In this document: piece after piece, positions 5,368 through 53,562 of the stretch
Layout of the letters: the number at the start of each line of letters is the position of its first letter
Numbering within the stretch: the first letter of the stretch is position 1
Source of the DNA: Candidatus Nomurabacteria bacterium
Lineage (GTDB): Bacteria > Patescibacteriota > Minisyncoccia > Phycocordibacterales > UBA9973
DNA length: 64,000 bases
Assembly (NCBI GenBank): GCA_021413905.1
Contig: JAIOPO010000004.1
Location: 1,597 to 65,596, forward strand
Direction: 5' to 3'
Position numbers and translations under genes: made by a program
Notes under the pieces: generated by a model
What the model saw: only the letters and a program-made list of their open reading frames with translations
Databases searched by the model: none
Told to the model about the DNA's origin: nothing

Positions 5368-6651
5368 ATGGACAGATCAAGGAAAATGATACTTTTTGCG
5401 GGTGATATATCTATGTTATATATTGCAGGCTATTTAACACTCCTTATTCGTTTTGGTATTAAACAAGCTTCTAACGAAATACCGACTCATATTTTACCTT
5501 TTATTATTTGGACAATACTATTATCTATTATTTTTTATATTTTTAATCTTTACGAAACGACATCTGTAAAATTAACTTTTAAAAACTTAAAACAATTTTT
5601 ATTTGCATTATCTACGAGCATAGTCTCAGGTATAATGTTATTTTATTTATTTCCCTTTTCCATAACTCCAAAAACAAACTTATTATTGACTCAAATATTA
5701 TTTTCCTTATTTATTTTAATTTGGCGTAGATTTTACTACAATATTTTTTCAAAAAAATTTAAAAATCAAATTGCTTTCATTGGAAAAACAACACCTGAAT
5801 CAGAAATATTAATAAAAAATATAATTGAAAATCCACATATAGGATATTCATTTATTGGAAATTTTAAAAATTTCTCAGATTTACAAACAAGTAAAATAAA
5901 AATAAATACAATAGTTTATACTGAAAAAGATAATTCTATAAATTTGGAAGAGCTAAGCAAATCAGATTATGATTATCTAAACATAACAAAAGCATTTCAA
6001 ATCATTTTAAATAAAATACCGGTCAGTCTTATGGATAACGAAATTGCTTTAAATATTTTAGAAAACAAAAAGAACATTGTTTTTAACAGTATCAAAAGAT
6101 TAACTGATATAATATTTTCAATAACAATACTTATAATCACCTTACCAGTAACCATAATAACCGCACTTTTAATATTCATAGAAGACAGAAAAAATATATT
6201 TTATAAACAAATTCGTGTTGGTTACAAGAAAAAAAAATTTAATATAATAAAATTTCGTTCAATGAATATAAATGCCGAAAAAAATGGTGCTGTTTGGGCA
6301 ATAGAAAAAGATCCACGCACAACTTTTGTCGGAAAAATAATAAGAAAATTACATATAGATGAAATACCACAAATGATAAATATACTCAAAGGAGATATTT
6401 CACTAATAGGTCCCCGACCTGAAAGACCTGAATTTGTTGAAATTCTAGAAAAAGAAATTCCTTTTTACTTTTTACGTCAAACAATAAAACCTGGTTTCAC
6501 AGGCTGGGCACAAATAAAATTTCGATATGCACGATCAGTGGTAGACAGTAGAGAAAAATTTGAATACGATTTATATTATATCAACAATTGGAATTTGTTT
6601 TTAGACTTAGGAATTTTAATAAAAACAATTCAAATAATTTTTAGTCATTAA
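5368..6651 (+). CDS. Polyprenyl-phosphate sugar phosphotransferase (bacterial sugar transferase, WbaP/WcaJ-like priming enzyme)
   Basis: N-terminal TM helices and a C-terminal domain with KFRSM...DEIPQ...ISLIGPRPERPEFV...KPGFTGWAQI motifs. Confidence 0.85.
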   Translation: MDRSRKMILFAGDISMLYIAGYLTLLIRFGIKQASNEIPTHILPFIIWTILLSIIFYIFNLYETTSVKLTFKNLKQFLFALSTSIVSGIMLFYLFPFSITPKTNLLLTQILFSLFILIWRRFYYNIFSKKFKNQIAFIGKTTPESEILIKNIIENPHIGYSFIGNFKNFSDLQTSKIKINTIVYTEKDNSINLEELSKSDYDYLNITKAFQIILNKIPVSLMDNEIALNILENKKNIVFNSIKRLTDIIFSITILIITLPVTIITALLIFIEDRKNIFYKQIRVGYKKKKFNIIKFRSMNINAEKNGAVWAIEKDPRTTFVGKIIRKLHIDEIPQMINILKGDISLIGPRPERPEFVEILEKEIPFYFLRQTIKPGFTGWAQIKFRYARSVVDSREKFEYDLYYINNWNLFLDLGILIKTIQIIFSH

Positions 6652-29985: not shown

Positions 29986-31254
29986 CTAAACTTTCAAAAA
30001 AGGCAGAAATTCTTTACTGTCATTAAATGGACCAATAAGAGCAAGATTTAATTTGTCATTTTTAAATATTTCTCTAGCCATATCACGCACTTGTTTTGGG
30101 GTCACCATCTTTATTTTTTTTGCTTTTTCTTCAGCTGATTCTATTTTCTTTAAAAGTATTTCTTGTCCTCCGTAAAAATTGGCAATATCATCTGTGGCTT
30201 CCAAACCCATTTTCATACCGGAAATAAAAATCTCTTTTACTTTATTTAATTCTTTTTCTGAAACAAGTTCATCTTTTAATTTTGAACATTCTTCCAATAT
30301 CGCAGTGATGACTTCTTTGACACGCTTATTGTCCACACCAGAAGAAATCTGAAATACTCCGTGGTCAGTATACGGGTCTGTATTTGCGCGAACATAATAA
30401 CAAACTCCCATTTCTTCGCGAAGTTTATAAAAAAGTCTGGAGCTCATCCCTGCACCCAAAACACCGGACAATACGGACAGTATTGCATTTTTTTTGTTAA
30501 AAATATCAAATGCGCGAAAACCTAAAACAAAATGTGTTTGATCTGTGGCTTTATGTTTTATTTTAATATTTGGCTTATCTTGTTTTTCAATTGTCTTTAT
30601 TTTTCCAAATTTTTTATCATTCTTTAAATCACCAAAAGCTTTTTTAATTTCCTGCATCATTTCTTTTTCAGATACTCCCCCTGCGACGACCACCGTTGTG
30701 GCTTTTGGAACATATTGTTCTTTTTTATATTTAACAAAATCATCGCGTTTCATTTTTTTAATATTCTCAATCGGACCGGCAATATTCCAACCCGCAGGCT
30801 GATCTCCATACAATACTTCCATAAGCATGTCTTGCACATGACGCATTGGTAAATCTTCATACATATTTATTTCTTCTATTATCACTCCTTTTTCTTTTTC
30901 CATTTCAGTTTCTGGAAAAGTGGAATTCAAATAAATATCAGAAACTACATCAAAAATTTTCTTGAAATGTTTCACATCACTTTTTGCATAATAACCTGTA
31001 TATTCTTGGCCGGTAAAAGCATTGTATTGCGCTCCCATAGTGTCTAACTCTGTAGAAATATCACGCGCAGTCGGACGCTTTACAGTACCCTTGAAACACA
31101 TATGTTCCAAAAAATGTGATAAACCGTTTAACTCTCGAGTCTCATATTTGGAACCTGTTTCCACCAACACCAAAGCTGTCACCGTCGGGCTTTCTTTCAT
31201 TGGTATTGTAATAACTCGTAACCCATTCTTTAAAATTGTTTTTTTAGCTTTCAT
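29986..31254 (-). CDS. M16 family zinc peptidase (insulinase-like)
   Basis: HFLEHM inverted zinc-binding motif (HxxEH) near the N-terminus. Confidence 0.85.
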   Translation of the reverse strand: MKAKKTILKNGLRVITIPMKESPTVTALVLVETGSKYETRELNGLSHFLEHMCFKGTVKRPTARDISTELDTMGAQYNAFTGQEYTGYYAKSDVKHFKKIFDVVSDIYLNSTFPETEMEKEKGVIIEEINMYEDLPMRHVQDMLMEVLYGDQPAGWNIAGPIENIKKMKRDDFVKYKKEQYVPKATTVVVAGGVSEKEMMQEIKKAFGDLKNDKKFGKIKTIEKQDKPNIKIKHKATDQTHFVLGFRAFDIFNKKNAILSVLSGVLGAGMSSRLFYKLREEMGVCYYVRANTDPYTDHGVFQISSGVDNKRVKEVITAILEECSKLKDELVSEKELNKVKEIFISGMKMGLEATDDIANFYGGQEILLKKIESAEEKAKKIKMVTPKQVRDMAREIFKNDKLNLALIGPFNDSKEFLPFLKV

Positions 31255-31264
31255 GCCTTTTATA

Positions 31265-31762
31265 TTAGCACATTTTTGAAAGTGTTTCTTTTATCTCTTT
31301 ATTATTATGAACAATGAAAACTTGTTTTGTATCTTTATAGCTTTCAGCTAAGACAAGCATTTCTTTGTTTGGCCATAGGAGAATGTATTTTATTAAATCA
31401 AAACTAATCTTTTGTTTTGCTCCATCTGGTTTATCAAATGGCTTATCTGTATTAAAAATTCTTACAAAAGCTCTCCATACACATCTCCACTTTGGAAAAT
31501 CAAAAAATATAATTACATCAGCTCTTTCTAATCTACTAGGAAGAGTTTTTTTATAATTACCATCAATAATCCATTTGTCTTGTTTTACAAATGGCTCTAC
31601 TGCATTTTTAAATTCCATTTTTGTGGAATATACTTCTTTCCAGTCTTTAGTCCAGTACAATTTATCAAGATGCACCACTGGTAAATCTAATTTCTTTCCA
31701 AGCTCATTTGCCAATGTAGACTTCCCTGATCCAGATACTCCAAAAATAGTTATTCGATCCAT
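31265..31762 (-). CDS. P-loop NTPase, topology-modulation (FlaR)/adenylate-kinase-like putative nucleotide kinase
   Basis: Walker A GVSGSGKST at the N-terminus and a WIIDGNY motif. Confidence 0.55.
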   Translation of the reverse strand: MDRITIFGVSGSGKSTLANELGKKLDLPVVHLDKLYWTKDWKEVYSTKMEFKNAVEPFVKQDKWIIDGNYKKTLPSRLERADVIIFFDFPKWRCVWRAFVRIFNTDKPFDKPDGAKQKISFDLIKYILLWPNKEMLVLAESYKDTKQVFIVHNNKEIKETLSKMC

Positions 31763-31795
31763 AAAATTATTCTATCACAGAATTCCAATAACTCA

Positions 31796-31815
31796 ATCTA
31801 CGCCATGGCGTAGAT
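31796..31815. repeat. Perfect 20-bp palindrome ATCTACGCCATGGCGTAGAT (copy 1)
   Basis: Read from sequence; 8 nt downstream of the Cas2-like stop and ~34 nt upstream of the kinase start. Confidence 0.8.
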
Positions 31816-31822
31816 ATAAAAT

Positions 31823-32200
31823 CTACATACTACTCTTTTTTGTATCATAAGGTTTAGCTAATTTAAAAGTTTTAAAGTTATCCCCTATTTTTATTTCTTT
31901 CAAATAGCTCGTAAAATCTTTCGGTAAGGGTGAAGGTCCTACCCAAACACTTTTTTGAATCATTACATAACCGAACTTAATTAAATGCCTACGAAACCAA
32001 TCGCGTTCTTTCTTTTGCTCACTAGGAATGTCGTACATGATGATTAAATTTTTTACAGAATCTTTTTGAAAAGGTGACAAAAAAGAGCCAAGATAAAGCC
32101 GCTTTGGATTTTTTATTATTGAATTTTTCTTTTCGCTAATTAAAATGGGTAAACCAAAAGAATTTACTTTTACACCTTTATAATATTTAGACATGAACAT
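31823..32200 (-). CDS. Cas2-family protein (type II Cas2-like core) with ~50-aa N-terminal extension; orphan, no cas1 or CRISPR array in window
   Basis: IIMYDIPSEQKKERDWFRRHLIKFGYVMIQKSVW aligns with SpyCas2 [37 protein letters not shown]. The core may start at the internal Met (~32038). Confidence 0.55.
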   Translation of the reverse strand: MFMSKYYKGVKVNSFGLPILISEKKNSIIKNPKRLYLGSFLSPFQKDSVKNLIIMYDIPSEQKKERDWFRRHLIKFGYVMIQKSVWVGPSPLPKDFTSYLKEIKIGDNFKTFKLAKPYDTKKSSM

Positions 32201-32216
32201 ATTATACCACCAAAAT

Positions 32217-32239
32217 TCATCTACGCCATGGCTGAGATG
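32217..32239. repeat. Degenerate second copy of the 20-bp palindrome (ATCTACGCCATGGCTGAGAT)
   Basis: Differs from copy 1 by a gt->tg swap; lies 17 nt upstream of the Cas2-like ORF start. Confidence 0.7.
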
Positions 32240-32288
32240 TAAGAAAAGTTATTCTTTCTATTCGAAATAAAAGCTTTTAGTTGATTAT

Positions 32289-32933
32289 TTAATAACTAAA
32301 GTCTTGTATCTTTAAAAATACAAGATTATCTTTTTTATTATCGTCATAAAAACCATTTATAAATTTCTCGAAAACATCCCATTCTTTATGGTATCCATAA
32401 ATAAATTTATTATATTGTTTTAAATATTTTGGCAAAAATTTCATAAACGCAAATTCAGAAAGAATATAATGAGTTCCAATTTGAATATCACTTAATTCAA
32501 TACTTTTCTTTTTAAAAGGATTTTCTATCAAAACATTTTTTGTTGCTTGATTTATATCTTTTTCAAAGTCTTTATTTGTAAAATATAAATTTTTAACGTA
32601 ATTATATTCTTTTTTATAATCATTATTATTTTCAATATTTTCTTTTTGCCAATCAAAAACTAGAATATGACTTTCATTAAGATTTTGATTTTTAATAGAT
32701 CTTTTTACTCTATTTTTAAAATTATTACCTTGAGGAATTGCTTTTTTACCACGTGCAATATTTTCTGAATAACCAAGAGCTAGGTATGTTGAAATTGCTG
32801 GAACATCTGGAATAAATATTCCTAAATTTAAATACTCATCTGAATATTTTTTTAATATCCTATCAATAACCTCTTGTTTAAAGTAGCCATTACCAGGACT
32901 CATCCCTATAACTAAAAAATCTTCTACGTTCAT
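32289..32933 (-). CDS. tRNA-dependent cyclodipeptide synthase (CDPS family, NYH subtype)
   Basis: VIGMSPGNGYF matches the catalytic-Ser box (AlbC GISAGNSYF, YvmC GISPFNSRF). YILSE matches the AlbC Y178/E182 box (YVLAE). YGYHKEW matches the Y202-H203 box. ATG lies 2 nt after the glyS stop. Confidence 0.7.
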   Translation of the reverse strand: MNVEDFLVIGMSPGNGYFKQEVIDRILKKYSDEYLNLGIFIPDVPAISTYLALGYSENIARGKKAIPQGNNFKNRVKRSIKNQNLNESHILVFDWQKENIENNNDYKKEYNYVKNLYFTNKDFEKDINQATKNVLIENPFKKKSIELSDIQIGTHYILSEFAFMKFLPKYLKQYNKFIYGYHKEWDVFEKFINGFYDDNKKDNLVFLKIQDFSY

Positions 32934-32935
32934 TT

Positions 32936-34264
32936 CTAATTCAATTTATTTTTTATATAAGAAATTAATTCAGAAATTTTTATTCTTTCTTGGTTTCCGG
33001 TATCTCGATCGCGGATAGTCACAGTATCCAAAAGCTCTGGATTTTCACCAAGGGTGTCGAAGTCGATGACGATGCACCACGGCGTGCCGATTTCGTCTTG
33101 TCGGCGATAACGCTTGCCGATGTTGCCATTGTCATCCCAAGCCACACGGCCGAATTCTTTTTTTAACATAGAAAATACTTCCCTACTTTTTGATACTAAT
33201 TCTGGTTTATTTTTCAACAGTGGAGACACAGCACAAAGCACAGGGGCAATTTGTGGACGAAGTTTTAAATATATACGAACTTCTCCACCCATTTCATCTT
33301 CAGTATATGCAGATAATAATATAGCTAATAATGCCCTCTCTACACCAAATGAAGGCTCTATCACATGTGGAGTAATCTTTTCGCTGTTCTCCTCGTCTAC
33401 ATATTCAAGCTTGTGTATCTTCAAATCAAAATCTCCTCGATATGCAAGACCGAAAAGCTCTTTTCGGCCAAAAGGATAATCAAACTCAAAATCTACTGTG
33501 CGTTTTGAGTAGTGTGCCAAATCTTCTGATACTACTTCAAGCTCGTGTACTTTATTCATATCAATACCCACGCTACTCATCCATAAATGCATTTCATTTT
33601 TCAATTCATTAAAAGCATTTTCCCAATTATTTTCTCGTACAAAATATTCTATTTCCATTTGCTCAAATTCACGAGAACGAAAAATAAAATCTCTGGGTGT
33701 AATTTCATTTCTAAAAGCTTTACCAATTTGAGCAATACCAAATGGAATCTTTGGATGATGTGTGTCCACAATGTTTTTAAAATTCACAAATATTCCTTGT
33801 GCAGTCTCTGGGCGAAGATATGAAATAGCAGAGGAATCTTCTGAGGCTCCCACTTTTGTTTGAAACATCATATTGAATTGGCGAGCTTCCCCTAGTTTGC
33901 CTCCACAATCAGCACAATTATTTTTATCTTCAATTTGATCTATTCGAAAACGATGCTGACATTTTTCACATTCTACCATTGGATCTGCAAAATGCTCCGC
34001 ATGTCCGGTAGCTTGCCACACTTCTTGACGCATCAAGATTGCAGCACGAATACCATACATATCTTCACGATTAGAAACAAATTTTTCCCACCAAGAATTT
34101 TTTATATTATTTAAAATTTCATTTCCAAAATGCCCATAATCCCAAGTGCCCGCAAATCCCCCGTAAATTTCAGAACCCGGAAAAATAAAACCGCGTCTCT
34201 TACAAAGACTCACTATTTTTTCCATTAACTCACTTTCTTCTTTTTTATTTTCTTTATTAGACAT
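32936..34264 (-). CDS. glyS: Glycyl-tRNA synthetase (class II, dimeric archaeal/eukaryotic-like type)
   Basis: Class II motifs and the GlyRS-specific FIFPGSEIYGG...WDYG region. Confidence 0.9.
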   Translation of the reverse strand: MSNKENKKEESELMEKIVSLCKRRGFIFPGSEIYGGFAGTWDYGHFGNEILNNIKNSWWEKFVSNREDMYGIRAAILMRQEVWQATGHAEHFADPMVECEKCQHRFRIDQIEDKNNCADCGGKLGEARQFNMMFQTKVGASEDSSAISYLRPETAQGIFVNFKNIVDTHHPKIPFGIAQIGKAFRNEITPRDFIFRSREFEQMEIEYFVRENNWENAFNELKNEMHLWMSSVGIDMNKVHELEVVSEDLAHYSKRTVDFEFDYPFGRKELFGLAYRGDFDLKIHKLEYVDEENSEKITPHVIEPSFGVERALLAILLSAYTEDEMGGEVRIYLKLRPQIAPVLCAVSPLLKNKPELVSKSREVFSMLKKEFGRVAWDDNGNIGKRYRRQDEIGTPWCIVIDFDTLGENPELLDTVTIRDRDTGNQERIKISELISYIKNKLN

Positions 34265-36864: not shown

Positions 36865-39800
36865 TTATTCTATCACAACCTTAAATACCAATTCGTTGAT
36901 TTTTATTTCATTGCCGTCATTTTTTGTAAAATCAATTTGTTTAACGCCGACAATCTTCAAAAATTCATCTTTGAATTTATTTATTATTTCTTTGCCTTTT
37001 TCATCAGTATCAATTTTCAACACTATCAAATCACTAGGCATCAAACCTTTTGTTTTCCGCATATCTTGCACAGCTCGCACTAGCTCGCGATAATTGCCTT
37101 CTATTTTTAATTCTGGTGTGATTTCTGTATCTAATTTTATAACATCTTCTACATTTTCAGATTTAATAAATTCAACATTTTTTATATTCAATTCTTCTTT
37201 TAGAATCTCTATATAATTTATATTAAATTCATGATAAAAAATTTGAATATTACTCAAAGGCTGTCTTACGGGAATTCCTGATTTTTGTCTTTCTTTTAAA
37301 CCAGATGAAACAATTTCTCTGACTTGTTTCATATTTTCTAAAATTTCATCATTAAAATTTAAAATATTTACTTCCGGCCATTCTGCCAAATGTACAGATT
37401 CTACATCATTTTTATTTTTTAATTTTTGCCAAATATCTTCGGACGCAAAAGGCGCAAATGGGGCCATAATTTTCACTAAATTTTTCAACACAAAATACAG
37501 AGTTTGTTTTGCTTCGATATCTCCATTTTTAATTCTCTCTCTTGAACGACGCAAATACCAAGTAGAAAGATCATCGATAAAATCACGAACAGCACGCACT
37601 GGTTCCAATGTTCTATAATTGTCTAAATTATCTGTTACAGTTTTATTCAATTCATTTAAACGCGCCAAAATCCATTGATCTAAAATATTTTCAGATTTTA
37701 ATTCTGTGAATACTTCTAATTGTGGATCTCTATAGAGTTCATAAAAAGCGACGACGTTATAAAGCAAACCAAAAAATTGACGATGAATTTCCATGACAGT
37801 TCTCTCATCAAAATTCTTTGATTCACCCGGTTGATTTACGGAATACATCCAAAGACGAATAGTGTCCGCGCCATATTTTTCAAACATAAGCCAAGGGTCC
37901 ACGACATTTCCTTTTGACTTTGACATTTTTTGTCCATTTGCGTCTAAGATATGCCCCAAACAAACGACATTTTTATAAGCATTACCAGGTTCATCAGAAA
38001 GTAAATTTATAACTGCATGCAAAGTATAAAACCATCCGCGAGTCTGATCTATCGCTTCAGAAATATAATCCGCTTTTATCGGATTAAAATCAATCTCTTT
38101 ACCCAGAATATGATTTTGAGCATAAGGCATAGCCCCAGAATCAAACCACACATCCATCACTTCTCCCGTGCGAATCATTTTTTGACCATTATCTTCCAAA
38201 ACTATCTCATCAATATATGGCTTATGAAAATCCAATTCGTAATTTGCATTATGAGGTAATGGCACAAAATCTAATTCCTTGATTTCAGCATTTTGAAAAA
38301 AATGAAAATCTTTTTTATCTAAAATCATTTTTAATGTTTCTTTTACATTTTTTCCTTCAATACCTGCACACAACAACCAAGCAGGACCACCATGAGTCAC
38401 AAATAAAATATTTTTGTCTTTGTATTTTTCTTCAACATCATACAAAAATGCTGTCATACGATTTTTCACATCTTGATATGATTCATCATCCTCTACATGC
38501 AAATTAAAATTTGCTTCCGTTTTTATGTGATATTTATGATATTCTTCCCAATTCTTTCCATCAAAAGAATACGCTCCTATTTCTCGCAGTCTTTCATCTT
38601 TGATAATATTTTCTTTATTCAATCCCAATTTTTGAGCGACGATTTCCGCAGTTTCAATAGTACGAGTAAAATCAGAAGTAAATATCAAATCAATTTTTTT
38701 ATCTTTCAGAAATTCTGCGGAAATTTCCACTTGCTCTTTACCGTCTTTATCTAAATGCCATTTACCTGAAGGTTGTGTGCAAATTATATTTTTTTTATTT
38801 GCTTCTGTTTCTCCATGTCTCATTACAAAATATTTATTGCCTGATTTTTTAGTATATTTTTTCAAATCAGCCAAAGAACCGACAACTTTATAAGAGCCAT
38901 CTTCTTTTTGCCAAACAGGTATCGGTGTACCCCAATATCTATCTCTGGATATAGCCCAATCTTTTATACCATCAAGCCATTCACCAAAACGTCCTTTTTT
39001 AATATATTCCGGCTCCCAATTTATTTTTTCATTTCCTGCGAGCAATTGTTCGCGAAGCGCACTCATGCGGAAATACCAAGAAGAACGTGCGTAATAAATG
39101 AGCGGTGTATCACAACGCCAACAATGCGGATAGCTATGCATATAATTTTCTTTTTTAAACAAAAGACTTCGTTCTGTTAAATGATTTATTATATCCACAG
39201 CCAAAGTAGGTTTACCGTTCTCATCTGTTTCTTTTACATATCTACCTGCTAAGAAATCCGTACCGATGACGAATTTTCCTTCTTCATTTACTGTATGATA
39301 TTTAGGCAAACCGACTTTTGTACCAAGCTCAAAATCATCTGCTCCATACATAACAGCGGTATGCACTATACCCGTACCGTCAGTAGTCGTAACAAAATCC
39401 GCTCCGTAAATTTTAAAAGCATTTTTTATTTTTTCATCATCTTTAGCCAAATCTTTTAAATATGGGAACAATGGTTCGTATTCCATACCAATCATTTCAC
39501 TGCCTTTATGTTCAGCAATAATTTCATACGGCTGATTTAATATTTCCAATCTTTCTTTTGCCAACACTAAAATCTCATCACCGACTTTTGCCTCAACGTA
39601 AATAAAATCATTACCAACTGCAAGTCCGACATTTCCCGGTAAAGTCCAAGGCGTTGTCGTCCATGCCAAAAAATATGCGTGATCGAAATTTTTAATTTTA
39701 AATTTTATATATACGGACAAATCTTTCACATCCTTATATGCTCCCGGTTGTGAGAGTTCATGACTTGAGAGGGCCGTACCACAACGTGTACACCAAGGCA

Positions 39801-40344
39801 AAACCTTAAAATCTTTATATAAAAATCCTCTATCATTTATTTTCTTTACAACACCCCACAATGCTTCTATATAACTGTTTTCATATGTCACATATGGATT
39901 TTCTTGGTCAATCCAATAACCCATTCTTTCTGTAAATTTATTCCAAAATTCCAAATATTCCCAAACATTCTCTTTACACTTTTGATTAAAAAGTTTTACA
40001 CCATAATTTTCTATTTCTTTTTTTGATTTTAAACCAAGAGCTTTTTCCACAGCCAATTCAACAGGCAAACCATGTGTATCCCAACCCCCTTTTCTACCAA
40101 CATGAAAACCTTGCATTGTTTTGTAACGAGGAACAACATCTTTGAAAGAACGAGCTTCTAAATGATGAATACCTGGTTTACCATTTGCTGTCGGTGGTCC
40201 TTCATAAAAAATATAATCTCCTTTTGGATTATCTTTTCGATTTATCGTCTTTTCAAAAATTTTATTTTCTTTCCAGAATTCTAAAACTTTTTCCTCACGC
40301 AAAGCTGTCTCACTTTTTGTAATATTTTCTTTATTTTCAGACAT
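36865..40344 (-). CDS. ileS: Isoleucyl-tRNA synthetase carrying an inserted histidine-phosphatase (PGAM-like) domain
   Basis: PGIHHLEA (HIGH), KMSKS and CP1 editing region are present. Between the WAISRDRYWGTPIP and DVWFDSG motifs lies a ~170-aa RHGETEAN...IFTSDFTRTIETAEIV...VTHGGP insert. Confidence 0.9.
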   Translation of the reverse strand: MSENKENITKSETALREEKVLEFWKENKIFEKTINRKDNPKGDYIFYEGPPTANGKPGIHHLEARSFKDVVPRYKTMQGFHVGRKGGWDTHGLPVELAVEKALGLKSKKEIENYGVKLFNQKCKENVWEYLEFWNKFTERMGYWIDQENPYVTYENSYIEALWGVVKKINDRGFLYKDFKVLPWCTRCGTALSSHELSQPGAYKDVKDLSVYIKFKIKNFDHAYFLAWTTTPWTLPGNVGLAVGNDFIYVEAKVGDEILVLAKERLEILNQPYEIIAEHKGSEMIGMEYEPLFPYLKDLAKDDEKIKNAFKIYGADFVTTTDGTGIVHTAVMYGADDFELGTKVGLPKYHTVNEEGKFVIGTDFLAGRYVKETDENGKPTLAVDIINHLTERSLLFKKENYMHSYPHCWRCDTPLIYYARSSWYFRMSALREQLLAGNEKINWEPEYIKKGRFGEWLDGIKDWAISRDRYWGTPIPVWQKEDGSYKVVGSLADLKKYTKKSGNKYFVMRHGETEANKKNIICTQPSGKWHLDKDGKEQVEISAEFLKDKKIDLIFTSDFTRTIETAEIVAQKLGLNKENIIKDERLREIGAYSFDGKNWEEYHKYHIKTEANFNLHVEDDESYQDVKNRMTAFLYDVEEKYKDKNILFVTHGGPAWLLCAGIEGKNVKETLKMILDKKDFHFFQNAEIKELDFVPLPHNANYELDFHKPYIDEIVLEDNGQKMIRTGEVMDVWFDSGAMPYAQNHILGKEIDFNPIKADYISEAIDQTRGWFYTLHAVINLLSDEPGNAYKNVVCLGHILDANGQKMSKSKGNVVDPWLMFEKYGADTIRLWMYSVNQPGESKNFDERTVMEIHRQFFGLLYNVVAFYELYRDPQLEVFTELKSENILDQWILARLNELNKTVTDNLDNYRTLEPVRAVRDFIDDLSTWYLRRSRERIKNGDIEAKQTLYFVLKNLVKIMAPFAPFASEDIWQKLKNKNDVESVHLAEWPEVNILNFNDEILENMKQVREIVSSGLKERQKSGIPVRQPLSNIQIFYHEFNINYIEILKEELNIKNVEFIKSENVEDVIKLDTEITPELKIEGNYRELVRAVQDMRKTKGLMPSDLIVLKIDTDEKGKEIINKFKDEFLKIVGVKQIDFTKNDGNEIKINELVFKVVIE

Positions 40345-51794: not shown

Positions 51795-52205
51795 ATGGAA
51801 GAGTGTATATTTTGTAAAATAATAAAAGGGCAAATCCCTAGCACGAAAATTTATGAGGATGATAAAACCCTCGCCTTTTTGGATATTGCGCCAGTAAACA
51901 TCGGGCACGCTTTAATAATACCTAAAGAACATTATGCAAATATATATGAAACTCCGGAAGACACTATGTCAGACATAATAAAAGTAGCTAAAAAAATATC
52001 TCTCGCTGTGAAAGAAGCAGTAAAAGCAGAAGGAGTAAATATTACAATGAACAATAACCACGCTGCCGGGCAAGTAATATTCCATTCACACATTCACGTC
52101 ATCCCCCGTTTCTCAAACGATGGCTTTGAACTCTGGCACGGTAAAAGAGCATACGAAGATGACGAAATGAAATCTGTTGCTGAAAATATTACTTCAAAGC
52201 TTTAA
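51795..52205 (+). CDS. HIT-family (histidine triad) nucleotide hydrolase
   Basis: HSHIHVIP histidine-triad motif; N-terminal CxxC-like IFCKI. Confidence 0.9.
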   Translation: MEECIFCKIIKGQIPSTKIYEDDKTLAFLDIAPVNIGHALIIPKEHYANIYETPEDTMSDIIKVAKKISLAVKEAVKAEGVNITMNNNHAAGQVIFHSHIHVIPRFSNDGFELWHGKRAYEDDEMKSVAENITSKL

Positions 52206-53232
52206 TTAAATTTTTATCATTAAAAAATTTAGAAAGTTTATACCCCCTACAATGAGACAAAATTCCTAAATAAGAAAACTTTGACTCTTTGAATAAATTT
52301 TGTTTCACTTTTCGTAAAATTCTTTTTTTAGTGGAAGTTCGCAAAACTTTATAATGTGTAAGAACTACATAACCAAGAAAATCCACTCCTTGCGATACTT
52401 TTCTAATTTCAACTTTTTTGGGATGTAATTTTAATTTAAGTTTCTCTTCTAAAAATTCGGAAATTTTTGGTAAAAGTAATTCAAGAAAATATTTATCTTT
52501 TGAAACGCACACGAAATCGTCACAATATCTTGCATAATATTTTACTTTTAAAACATGTTTCATAAACTGATCAAAAACATTCATATAAACATTTGCAAAA
52601 AGTTGACTTGTCACATTACCAAGAGGAAGACCTTTGCCTTCTAATTTTTCAAAACTTTTTATAATATTTTCTAAAAGCCATTTGGTTTCCAAGCACTCAA
52701 TTTTTTCAAAAAGAATTTTCTTTAAAATTTCGTGATCTATTGAATCAAAAAATTTAGAAATATCACACTTTAATACCCAAGCATTATTTTTATAATTTTT
52801 TGTTTCTTTTCTTAAAAAACTTTCAAGACGCTCAACTCCCGCGTGAGTGCCTTTATTAAATCGGCAAGCATAAGAATCATAAATAAAAGATGGATCATAA
52901 ATTTTATAAAGTTGGCGAAAAACAGCTTGATGCACTACCCTGTCTCGAACCTGTGCTTTGTGTATATGTCTTATTTTGGGGTCGCAAACATAAAAAGGCA
53001 CATATGGCTCATTTATATATGTTTTTCTTCGTAGAGAAAAATGAATATCCAAGATATTTTTTTCTAAATTAAATTCAAATTTCTGTATATCAGTTTTTTT
53101 ATTTTTTCCACGACGAAACTCTCGCCACGCAGACAAAAGATTGGAAGTGGAAATAATATGATAGAATAAATCACTATGATGACCCCCCCACTTACTTCCA
53201 ATAAAATTATCGAGCTCCCTGTTATTCTCCAT
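52189..53232 (-). CDS. Diversity-generating retroelement (DGR) reverse transcriptase
   Basis: RT motifs including YCDDF (motif C) and the DGR-specific motif 4 LPLGNVTSQLFANVYMN (I/LGxxxSQ instead of QGxxxSP). About 347 aa with no maturase domain. Confidence 0.85.
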   Translation of the reverse strand: MENNRELDNFIGSKWGGHHSDLFYHIISTSNLLSAWREFRRGKNKKTDIQKFEFNLEKNILDIHFSLRRKTYINEPYVPFYVCDPKIRHIHKAQVRDRVVHQAVFRQLYKIYDPSFIYDSYACRFNKGTHAGVERLESFLRKETKNYKNNAWVLKCDISKFFDSIDHEILKKILFEKIECLETKWLLENIIKSFEKLEGKGLPLGNVTSQLFANVYMNVFDQFMKHVLKVKYYARYCDDFVCVSKDKYFLELLLPKISEFLEEKLKLKLHPKKVEIRKVSQGVDFLGYVVLTHYKVLRTSTKKRILRKVKQNLFKESKFSYLGILSHCRGYKLSKFFNDKNLIKALK

Positions 53233-53562
53233 GTAAAGAGATTATATAAAATAATATATCAATTGGGAATAAAAATGCCGAAACAAAATAAATTGGGCAT
53301 ACATAAAGTGTTGGAAGAAAAAACATTACTAATACTTACTACATTAATTGATTCAGCACTTAGAAGTAGGCAAGACAAAATACAAACTCTAAATCAAGCT
53401 CGTAGAGATATTGAAGTCTTGAAACATCTTATTCGCCTAGAATATGAATTAAATATAATACAAGAGAAATCTTATATAAATTTATCAGCGATGCTTGAAA
53501 ATATCTCTATGATGACAACCGGTTGGATAAAGTCTCTCGGAACACAAAAGCCCCTCTATTGA
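53176..53562 (+). CDS. Avd-like four-helix-bundle protein (23S rRNA IVS protein family), DGR accessory variability determinant candidate
   Basis: ...IYQLGIKMPKQNKLGI...LNQARRDIEVLKHLIRLEYELNIIQEKSY...WIKSLG parallels IVS/Avd proteins. Start uncertain (53176 overlaps the RT start on the other strand; alternative ATG at 53275). Confidence 0.6.
   Translation: MMTPPLTSNKIIELPVILHVKRLYKIIYQLGIKMPKQNKLGIHKVLEEKTLLILTTLIDSALRSRQDKIQTLNQARRDIEVLKHLIRLEYELNIIQEKSYINLSAMLENISMMTTGWIKSLGTQKPLY

Follow-up and report, generated by a model that had tools for sequence, protein, structure and literature searches.

We analyzed a 64-kb stretch of DNA from a Candidatus Nomurabacteria bacterium (Patescibacteria), referred to here as the window, and focused on a Cas2-like gene on its minus strand (31823–32200) that is bracketed by two copies of a 20-nucleotide palindrome. 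The gene appears to encode a regulator of the PaaX type, pared down to a Cas2 fold that seems itself to read DNA. It is not a stray CRISPR Cas2, and the highest profile score of its product is to the middle, Cas2-like domain of the PaaX repressors. We consider it probable that the protein is a minimal homodimeric regulator of this type, that it recognizes its cognate palindrome in duplex form and that, bound there, it represses the promoter of its own gene. In silico support comes from the fold, from bracketing by palindromes at ∼95% of the genes of the family, from the phasing of the promoter and from the co-variation of one amino acid with one base pair, and from these we infer dimerization, binding as a dimer, repression and a leaderless start. 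The unit of palindrome, promoter, gene and palindrome is inherited as a block, which in this genome lies inside a hypervariable accessory-gene slot.

To place the protein, its open reading frame (ORF; 125 residues, or 123 for 31823–32194 from the second ATG) was compared with profile and structure collections. The top profile match was PF20803 (PaaX_M), which covered residues 53–116 and reached 50.9 bits (cut-off 24). The Cas2 profiles PF09827 (31.9 versus 23.8 bits) and TIGR01573 (31.7 versus 24.5 bits) also passed their curated cut-offs, which bears out the Cas2-type core proposed in an earlier note made from the sequence alone, and TIGR02277, the full-length PaaX equivalog, gave 19.5 bits against a cut-off of 264.55. 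PaaX_M and Cas2 were the only PADLOC and Pfam matches of the protein. It ends 7 residues past the middle domain and lacks the C-terminal helical ligand-binding domain (PaaX_C), and Pfam gave no helix-turn-helix match in the 125 residues, ∼50 of which precede the PaaX_M domain and belong to a low-confidence part of the model. The AlphaFold2 model had a predicted local distance difference test score of 76.6 overall and of 82–92 over residues 41–120, with low values for residues 1–31. Its top Foldseek matches were type II-A Cas2 proteins (probability 0.9–1.0, though with weak E-values of ∼1e-2), E. coli PaaX (8a39) stood at rank 22, and according to the match descriptions VapD shares the fold. 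In the profile alignment, D57 of the MYDIP motif coincides with the conserved β1 aspartate of Cas2. The earlier note had aligned the core with type II Cas2 proteins, but the best family match is the PaaX middle domain.

The N-terminal ∼50 residues, which the same note had called an atypical extension, are real and are not atypical, since they are conserved throughout the family as YYKGxxVNxFGLP, a basic linker and Y..SF.SPF (residues 1–49 in the window protein). The family comprises at least 1800 clusters at 90% identity. Its best 120 homologues are 64–100% identical to the window protein and 116–169 residues long, most of them ∼125, and 318 loci were confirmed among the GTDB species-representative genomes; 80 of these were fetched, almost all labelled Patescibacteria. 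Identity between species is 65–80%. NCBI annotates the identical protein in its 123-residue form under the name “CRISPR-associated endonuclease Cas2.” In longer relatives (155–200 residues), the YYKG..FGLP motif is kept and a winged-helix-like segment with weak PadR/HTH_45 matches is inserted at the site of the basic linker, so that the 125-residue family can be understood as a PaaX-like protein reduced to the Cas2-like domain and a short N-terminal arm. A literature search found no paper that links PaaX with Cas2 or describes this patescibacterial family or its palindrome.

Both palindromes of the window were detected by sequence and by a covariance model. The downstream copy (31796–31815) is a perfect 20-nucleotide palindrome, ATCTACGCCATGGCGTAGAT, separated from the stop codon by 7 nucleotides; as single-stranded DNA it folds at −6.8 kcal/mol (z −4.8). 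The upstream copy (32219–32238, dyad between 32228 and 32229), the predicted operator, reads ATCTACGCCATGGCTGAGAT on the plus strand and ATCTCAGCCATGGCGTAGAT in the orientation of the gene, with two adjacent mismatches relative to ATCTACGCCATGGCGTAGAT; it lies 18 nucleotides from the first ATG and 24 nucleotides from the second (32192–32194), and the two copies are 423 bp apart. Its gene-5′ half-site carries a recurrent TCAGC variant, and its complementarity extends to 22 nucleotides (32217–32240). At up to 3 mismatches, these were the only two ATCTACGCCATGGCGTAGAT-type sites in 64 kb, and none of 100 dinucleotide shuffles gave any. The covariance model, built from other loci, returned the same two window sites only, at E ∼1e-5 (35.5 bits and E 1.8e-5 for the upstream copy, 36.3 bits and E 1.1e-5 for the downstream copy, next best E = 0.58; all of these E-values are rough). 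Within the window the palindrome is therefore specific and not a generic repeat, in keeping with the earlier note.

The bracketing was then compared in 80 loci from different species, which hold 82 genes and in which ORFs were called by simple rules (loci and contigs are designated below by L numbers). Both copies of a palindrome of 20–30 bp were present at 78 of the 82 genes. The upstream dyad lies 34–37 nucleotides before the ATG throughout the family, and a second copy, with its dyad −19 to +61 nucleotides from the stop codon, was found in 80 of the 82 loci; often it covers the last codons (TCA GCC ATG GCG TAA, encoding ...SAMA-stop). Locus-specific variants are common to both copies, as in L060, L077, L067, L051 and L054; for example, TCCACCATGGTGGA occurs twice in L060 and TTCGCCATGGCGAA twice in L077. 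Seven genomes have two paralogous genes (59–73% identical), and each paralogue has its own flavor of palindrome. Dyad symmetry extends over ∼15 nucleotides per arm with many compensatory changes, 81% being paired compared with 68% after shuffling, a level that none of 500 shuffles reached; sliding the register lowered the pairing to 22–55%. G·T and A·C mismatches are equally common in the palindromes, with no strand bias. The outer arms are self-complementary yet unlike between the two copies of one locus. The distance from dyad to dyad varies from 382 to 513 bp and shows no helical periodicity (Rayleigh R ∼0.1), and DNA looping with helical phasing was accordingly rejected.

Longer PaaX_M relatives are also bracketed by palindromes of their own. 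This was seen in L147, L113 and L111 and at two genes in L202, which encode proteins of 186 and 195 residues (L202:3146–3813 and L202:8667–9357) and have palindromes of 30–39 bp with the cores CAGCGGCCGCTG and ATATGCTATAGCATA. At the 195-residue L202 gene, TATAAT lies 23 nucleotides from the dyad and the ATG 6 nucleotides further on. Self-bracketing is thus a property of the wider family. A separate observation concerns assembly: in the NCBI metagenome-assembled scaffold L206, the upstream palindrome is duplicated on either side of a run of N (L206:3708 and 3863), and a terminator hairpin close by is where the Logan contigs from this population are broken, so inverted repeats seem to disturb assembly there.

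The upstream copy is phased with a promoter. In 82% of upstream copies the −10 hexamer starts at +22/+23 from the dyad, and in most others at +24–25; this phasing occurs in ∼1% of downstream copies and in ∼1–2% of solo copies, which is the background level. In nearly all loci TATAAT stands 6–9 nucleotides before the ATG, and in none is there a Shine-Dalgarno sequence. In the window, an extended −10 element, TGgTATAAT (32209–32201 on the minus strand; TG at 32209–32208, TATAAT at 32206–32201), has its hexamer 22 nucleotides from the dyad; the gene has no −35 hexamer, and the upstream palindrome occupies the −35 position. Because TATAAT here abuts the first ATG, compared with the family spacing of 6–9 nucleotides, translation probably begins at the second ATG (32194). 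An ATG so close behind the −10 element, together with the lack of a Shine-Dalgarno sequence, points to an mRNA that is probably leaderless or nearly so, with the palindrome in place of the −35. More generally, a TATAAT-like box 6–9 nucleotides before an ATG without a Shine-Dalgarno sequence is frequent in these genomes (for example at 31769–31774 and 32201–32206 in the window), which suggests that leaderless mRNAs are widespread in them.

The earlier note had read the palindromes as operator sites for a dimeric regulator, each shortly upstream of a start codon. The upstream copy fits an operator very well, and the regulator appears to be the product of the gene behind it, as judged from the co-variation described below. 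The position of the downstream copy ahead of the kinase gene that follows is a local coincidence. It is true that the kinase gene has a promoter-like site (31769–31796, minus strand; TTGAGT, 16 nucleotides, TAGAAT, the −10 being preceded by TG) whose −35 hexamer (TTGAGT) abuts the palindrome by 1 nucleotide, but this is a feature of the window and not of the family. Family-wide, the downstream copy stays with the 3′ end of the Cas2-like gene, where it often overlaps the stop codon, and it is unphased to downstream promoters.

To see which residues vary with the palindrome, mutual information was calculated between protein columns and the palindrome center. Residue 60, directly after the invariant Y56-D57-I-P59, gave 0.93 bit, and the next column gave 0.41 bit. 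At all 29 loci with Asp or Glu at this residue, the ±2 position relative to the dyad held a pair of the T-A type (C[T]AT[A]G, or a form changed in one half), whereas 48 of the 51 loci with His, Ser, Phe, Ala, Asn or Gln had C[C]AT[G]G and the remaining three were changed on one side only. The resulting two-by-two table (29/0/0/51) accounts for 80 of 80 loci (Fisher p = 2e-22), and when metagenome loci were added, 106 of 108 obeyed the rule. On three protein-similarity trees built without the residue-60 column, each character changed 14–15 times and the combined character also 14–15 times; therefore, the switches always coincide. The best other residue predicted the center in only 69 of the 80 loci, so that a linked block moved by recombination is not the source of the association.

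The window itself fits the rule with Ser60 and CCATGG, as do the L147 gene and the 195-residue L202 gene with Glu and CTATAG; the rule is inapplicable to the 186-residue L202 gene, which has Glu at position 60 and the center GCGGCCGC. The 3′ copy, though as constant as the one at the promoter, follows it less strictly, 7 of 48 acidic-type loci retaining CCATGG, perhaps because this copy is often coding. The change at the center is symmetric on both half-sites. The pairing of Asp/Glu with A-T (acid with adenine) and of His/Ser with G-C (guanine) agrees with the usual hydrogen-bonding preferences of these side chains and bases, and in Cas2 dimers the β1 aspartates face each other at the interface. 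From the symmetric change and these preferences, we infer a symmetric dimer on duplex DNA with its β1-α1 loops near the dyad. A second rule, linking the base pair at ±8 with the basic linker, was considered and rejected; residues 27–38 gave the best mutual information, but these are high-entropy columns with many exceptions.

PaaX offers a model for such a regulator: as a dimer on an inverted-repeat operator, it keeps RNA polymerase from binding to Px, its own promoter, which is thereby repressed, and its middle region is a dimerization motif (PMC9493321). By analogy, a homodimer of the Cas2 fold, lacking the usual winged helix, would bind the duplex palindrome, and the YDIP-x60 loop after β1, near the dimer axis, would read the two base pairs that lie at ±2 relative to the dyad. 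In a promoter of the extended −10 type, probably giving a leaderless mRNA, the upstream palindrome would stand in for the −35 element; with the palindrome in that place, a bound dimer would switch off its own transcription by excluding RNA polymerase, giving negative autoregulation by occlusion like that of PaaX at Px. The 3′ palindrome would be the second binding site of the unit and might serve as a barrier, as a loop partner or as a recombination site.

Several points weigh against this reading. All of the evidence is comparative sequence analysis and hence computational, and the trees on which switches were counted were built by the unweighted pair group method with arithmetic mean (UPGMA) on identities and are not a proper phylogeny. 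The protein has no recognized DNA-binding domain, its first 31 residues are modelled with low confidence, and to our knowledge there is no precedent for a Cas2 fold that reads DNA in a sequence-specific way. A conservation like that of ribosomal proteins (65–80% identity between species), the obligatory 3′ copy and the solo copies, which are not linked to promoters, call for more than autoregulation. Nor can one base-reading protein explain the symmetry of the outer arms, in which hairpin or cruciform potential or a correction of one arm by the other may be involved.

Solo copies were sought by an exact-pattern scan of metagenomes, which gave at least 120 contigs. Among the matches listed, about one third carry the gene nearby; the others are mostly extended palindromes that are intergenic and enriched between convergent genes, some in clusters of 2–4, some with flanking A- and T-runs and some in-frame inside genes. 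Some GC-rich matches may be chance hits of the 20-mer pattern. The ∼530 kb of flanks around the gene held 4 candidates (2–3 of them convincing) more than 2 kb away from it, and extra copies in its surroundings are few and lie at short distance. The density is higher on some metagenome contigs. Solo copies were considered as operators of a regulon and rejected as such, because they lack a −10 box at the family phasing and their positions are mixed, with all intergenic orientations represented and 29 copies inside ORFs.

Two observations on individual solo sites may be added. In comFC-like ORFs of L084, L094, L103, L124, L154, L170 and L181, one or two in-frame palindromes lie in the same loop of the ComF-type phosphoribosyltransferase and encode ..NLRHSVD.. 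or ..LRHGVN..; a more distant orthologue (L014) is without them. The IMG/VR contig L201 (129,911 bp) was the sole contig of the viral collection with the exact pattern, with three copies within ∼550 bp, and no Cas2-like gene was found in the 2.6 kb of it that were fetched.

Second to a PaaX-type regulator we rank a mobile or recombining cassette, which we regard as unlikely though deserving of weight. Here the palindromes would be att-like or end sites for insertion and excision of the unit, sometimes along with other genes; the Cas2-fold protein would recognize these sites or act as a nuclease, and its promoter, lying in the left end, would give autoregulation of the kind seen in insertion sequences (IS). 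This idea is compatible with DNA binding and differs only in the purpose of that binding. It draws on two metagenome contigs with empty sites that have exactly one palindrome where other genomes hold the full unit, at L091:5706–5725 (smc|palindrome|S11 peptidase) and in L122 (dyad at 6203; rpsG|palindrome|85-aa gene|fusA). Units occur in at least four conserved contexts (rpsG|fusA, smc|S11 peptidase, upstream of gatCAB, and folD|PAP2), and their position can shift, as from folD-[unit]-EamA-PAP2 to folD-EamA-[unit]. Third copies bracket unrelated genes in 8 loci (among them those for a HAD hydrolase and a kinase, a 207-aa gene and a 402-aa gene), some downstream copies have hybrid outer arms (cccc|acac), the unit always adjoins highly variable accessory genes, seven genomes have two units, and comFC orthologues have either one or two in-frame copies. 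Finally, the stop codon often lies within the right palindrome and the promoter in the left, a promoter in the left end and a stop in the right being a common IS layout.

Other data speak against mobility. Two identical proteins occur on 15 and 24 contigs from many samples, in one context each, so no recent movement was seen and recent transposition can be set aside; carriage by phages or plasmids can likewise be dismissed, as 2.9 million viral contigs held no relative. Neither in nor beside the unit is there a recombinase or transposase, in the window or among the neighbors in L202–L221. At most variable neighboring genes the outer palindrome is absent, being present in only ∼8–10 loci, and the conservation and single-copy status of the gene resemble those of a housekeeping gene. 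Empty sites can also arise by simple deletion between two repeats.

The syntenic comparison bears on the same question. The glyS|M16 peptidase junction was examined in four relatives whose GlyRS is 77–80% identical: it is empty in L205, holds a 130-aa gene in L203 and genes for NUDIX and DUF559 proteins in L204, and in L202 holds a 107-aa gene and the gene for the 195-residue PaaX_M protein with its own 39-bp palindromes. Compared with some of the relatives, the block in the window is thus inserted DNA, and slots of this kind repeatedly hold PaaX_M units. The earlier suggestion that the palindromes mark the ends of an inserted cassette gains from this junction, empty or differently filled, and from the one-palindrome empty sites elsewhere. 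It loses in that the insertion in the window extends beyond the gene between the palindromes and in that no recent movement was seen. A more specific and less likely version is that the Cas2 fold acts as a sequence reader, and perhaps a cutter, of a ∼30-bp palindromic repeat and that the order repeat-gene-repeat arose by a repeat-duplicating insertion, with one repeat at an empty site and two at an occupied one.

Improbable, in our judgement, is the view that the palindromes act as RNA or DNA hairpins (terminators, mRNA stabilizers or REP-like elements) and that the protein is an RNA-binding or RNase-type relative of Cas2 and VapD. Some Cas2 and VapD proteins have been reported as RNases, as the descriptions of the fold matches also state. 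The dyad symmetry with compensatory changes over ∼15 nucleotides per arm would suit a hairpin, as would the enrichment of solo copies between convergent genes, some with A- or T-runs, and their clusters of 2–4. On the other hand, the upstream copy precedes the likely transcription start, and its folding as single-stranded DNA is poor (z −1.15); the bases that co-vary, at ±2, would fall in the hairpin loop, where a symmetric change makes no sense, and copy number is low, with 2 copies in the 64 kb here. An intrinsic terminator was rejected: neither flanking copy is followed by a T-tract (at least five T in 5% and 11%, against a background of 11%), a scan of the window region found no terminator-like site, and L208 has an ordinary terminator ahead of its upstream palindrome. 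A strand-specific RNA hairpin was rejected as well, given the equal frequency of G·T and A·C mismatches. The absence of strand bias, the symmetric half-site change and the poor folding of the upstream copy favor reading of the palindrome as a duplex.

A VapD- or Cas2-like toxin of a toxin-antitoxin or defense module, with the palindrome as its operator, is very improbable. The fold is common to VapD and the gene stands in an accessory-gene slot; however, it is the sole ORF between the palindromes and has no partner, its neighbors vary, PADLOC gave Cas2 matches only, and the gene is vertically stable, very conserved and near-universal in its clade. The toxin role that had been raised for such standalone nucleases found no support, the partner gene being absent and the conservation extreme.

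Least credible of all is a displaced or degenerate CRISPR cas2 with partners elsewhere in the genome: Cas2 cut-offs are passed, the NCBI name says as much and the closest solved folds are type II-A Cas2, but PaaX_M outscores Cas2 (50.9 versus 31.9 bits), the family is marked by a conserved N-terminal region and a promoter of its own and, in ∼95% of loci, by the flanking palindromes, its neighbors include rpsG/fusA, smc, gatC, folD and glyS, and an identity of 65–80% between species is unlike that of cas2. Across the 82 loci, in which selected clusters were annotated, the neighbors are housekeeping or assorted accessory genes. Within the window, the Tandem Repeats Finder detected no CRISPR-like array (none of period 50–80) and PADLOC found no cas protein among the 59 ORFs other than the Cas2-like one, so the gene is an orphan there, as the earlier note had stated.

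Compared with known systems, the proposed regulator is closest to PaaX of E. coli and Pseudomonas (PDB 8a39, 3l09), with which it shares the central Cas2-like domain (PF20803 being its best match) and, as predicted here from sequence, a dimer on an inverted-repeat operator and repression of its own promoter (PMC9493321). It differs in having neither the N-terminal winged helix nor the C-terminal ligand-binding domain (125 versus ∼300 residues), in the two operator copies that bracket the gene, in having no link to paa genes and in a specificity residue that would lie within the Cas2-like domain, a part of PaaX described as a dimerization motif and nothing more. With CRISPR Cas2 of type II-A it shares the ferredoxin-like fold, the β1 motif hhhhYD(I/L)P, the motif FRxxLxxxG(F/Y)xMxQxSV(W/Y) and an association with ∼30-bp palindromic repeats; it differs by the lack of cas1, array and cas operon in the window, by the extra N-terminal region, by its own promoter and by its housekeeping context. 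We know of no sequence reading by Cas2 in the solved Cas1-Cas2 complexes.

Like the transposases associated with repetitive extragenic palindromic (REP) sequences, known as RAYTs, the gene is small, single-copy and vertically inherited between cognate palindromes, with solo or clustered intergenic copies enriched at gene 3′ ends. Unlike in RAYTs, its product belongs to another protein family, with neither the HUH motif nor the Y1 transposase fold (Pfam gave no match of this kind, and His72 is not invariant), the copy number is very low compared with the tens to hundreds of REP copies per genome, and the upstream copy is fused to a promoter and likely to be read as duplex and not as a single-stranded hairpin. 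With IS elements, integron attC cassettes and the pdif modules of Acinetobacter it has in common a promoter in the left end, a stop codon in or near the right end, ends bound by their own protein (a prediction here), two copies when occupied and one when empty, and occasional extra genes. It differs from them in that it has no transposase or recombinase of a known class, shows no recent mobility and, at ∼440 bp, is below any known autonomous element. Tus/TerB, RTP/Ter, ParB/parS and MatP/matS, site-specific chromosome proteins encoded next to one of a few sites, likewise have few high-affinity sites per genome, some of them inside genes, and one site of the tus-TerB pair overlaps the promoter of the protein and gives autoregulation; however, their folds are unrelated, whereas the sites described here are symmetric and always paired around the gene, with no evidence of proximity to an origin or terminus.

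Patescibacteria are largely without CRISPR, uncultivated and poor in regulators. The label “CRISPR-associated endonuclease Cas2,” given to this gene in hundreds of their genomes, is misleading and inflates counts of CRISPR components. So far, the Cas2 fold has been regarded as a scaffold or as a nuclease without specificity, and its counterpart in PaaX as no more than a dimerization module; if the regulator reading is correct, this fold can recognize DNA sequence, the pair would be among the first predicted regulator-operator pairs for these bacteria, and the rule of one residue for one base pair (Asp/Glu for T-A, His/Ser for C-G) is directly testable. The palindrome also serves to flag variable slots for accessory genes, among them the slot of the cyclodipeptide synthase (CDPS) gene in the window. 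The combination of a Cas2-fold protein with ∼30-bp palindromic repeats bears on how Cas2 and CRISPR repeats met. Were the protein instead the reader or cutter of a cassette, the unit would be a free-living relative of the partnership between Cas2 and CRISPR repeats, illustrating Cas2-like roles before or outside CRISPR adaptation, and a new class of minimal self-bracketed cassette marking hot spots of gene insertion in Patescibacteria.

The window is AT-rich (33% G+C), with densely packed housekeeping genes. Around the Cas2-like gene, the local gene order on the minus strand begins with glyS (32936–34264), directly followed by the CDPS gene (32289–32933; PF16715 77 bits, TIGR04539 102 bits); after the Cas2-like gene come the gene for a FlaR-like P-loop kinase (31265–31762) and, at the far end of the slot, the gene for an M16 peptidase (29986–31254). 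The CDPS gene, the Cas2-like gene and the kinase gene form an accessory block (31265–32933, minus strand) in the variable slot flanked by glyS and the M16 peptidase gene.

Elsewhere in the window, a reverse transcriptase gene (52192–53232, minus strand; RVT_1, 90 bits) adjoins a gene for a bAvd-like protein (53176–53559, plus strand; 37 bits, slightly below the cut-off), and the pair (52192–53559) looks like a diversity-generating retroelement. The presence of this reverse transcriptase gene explains a lone PADLOC match to Cas1_IIIb, which was rejected as spurious since it lies on that gene and covers only the reverse transcriptase part of the reverse transcriptase-Cas1 model. The isoleucyl-tRNA synthetase gene (36865–40344, minus strand, 1159 residues) encodes an inserted His_Phos_1 histidine-phosphatase domain, as it does in the relatives L202, L204 and L205.

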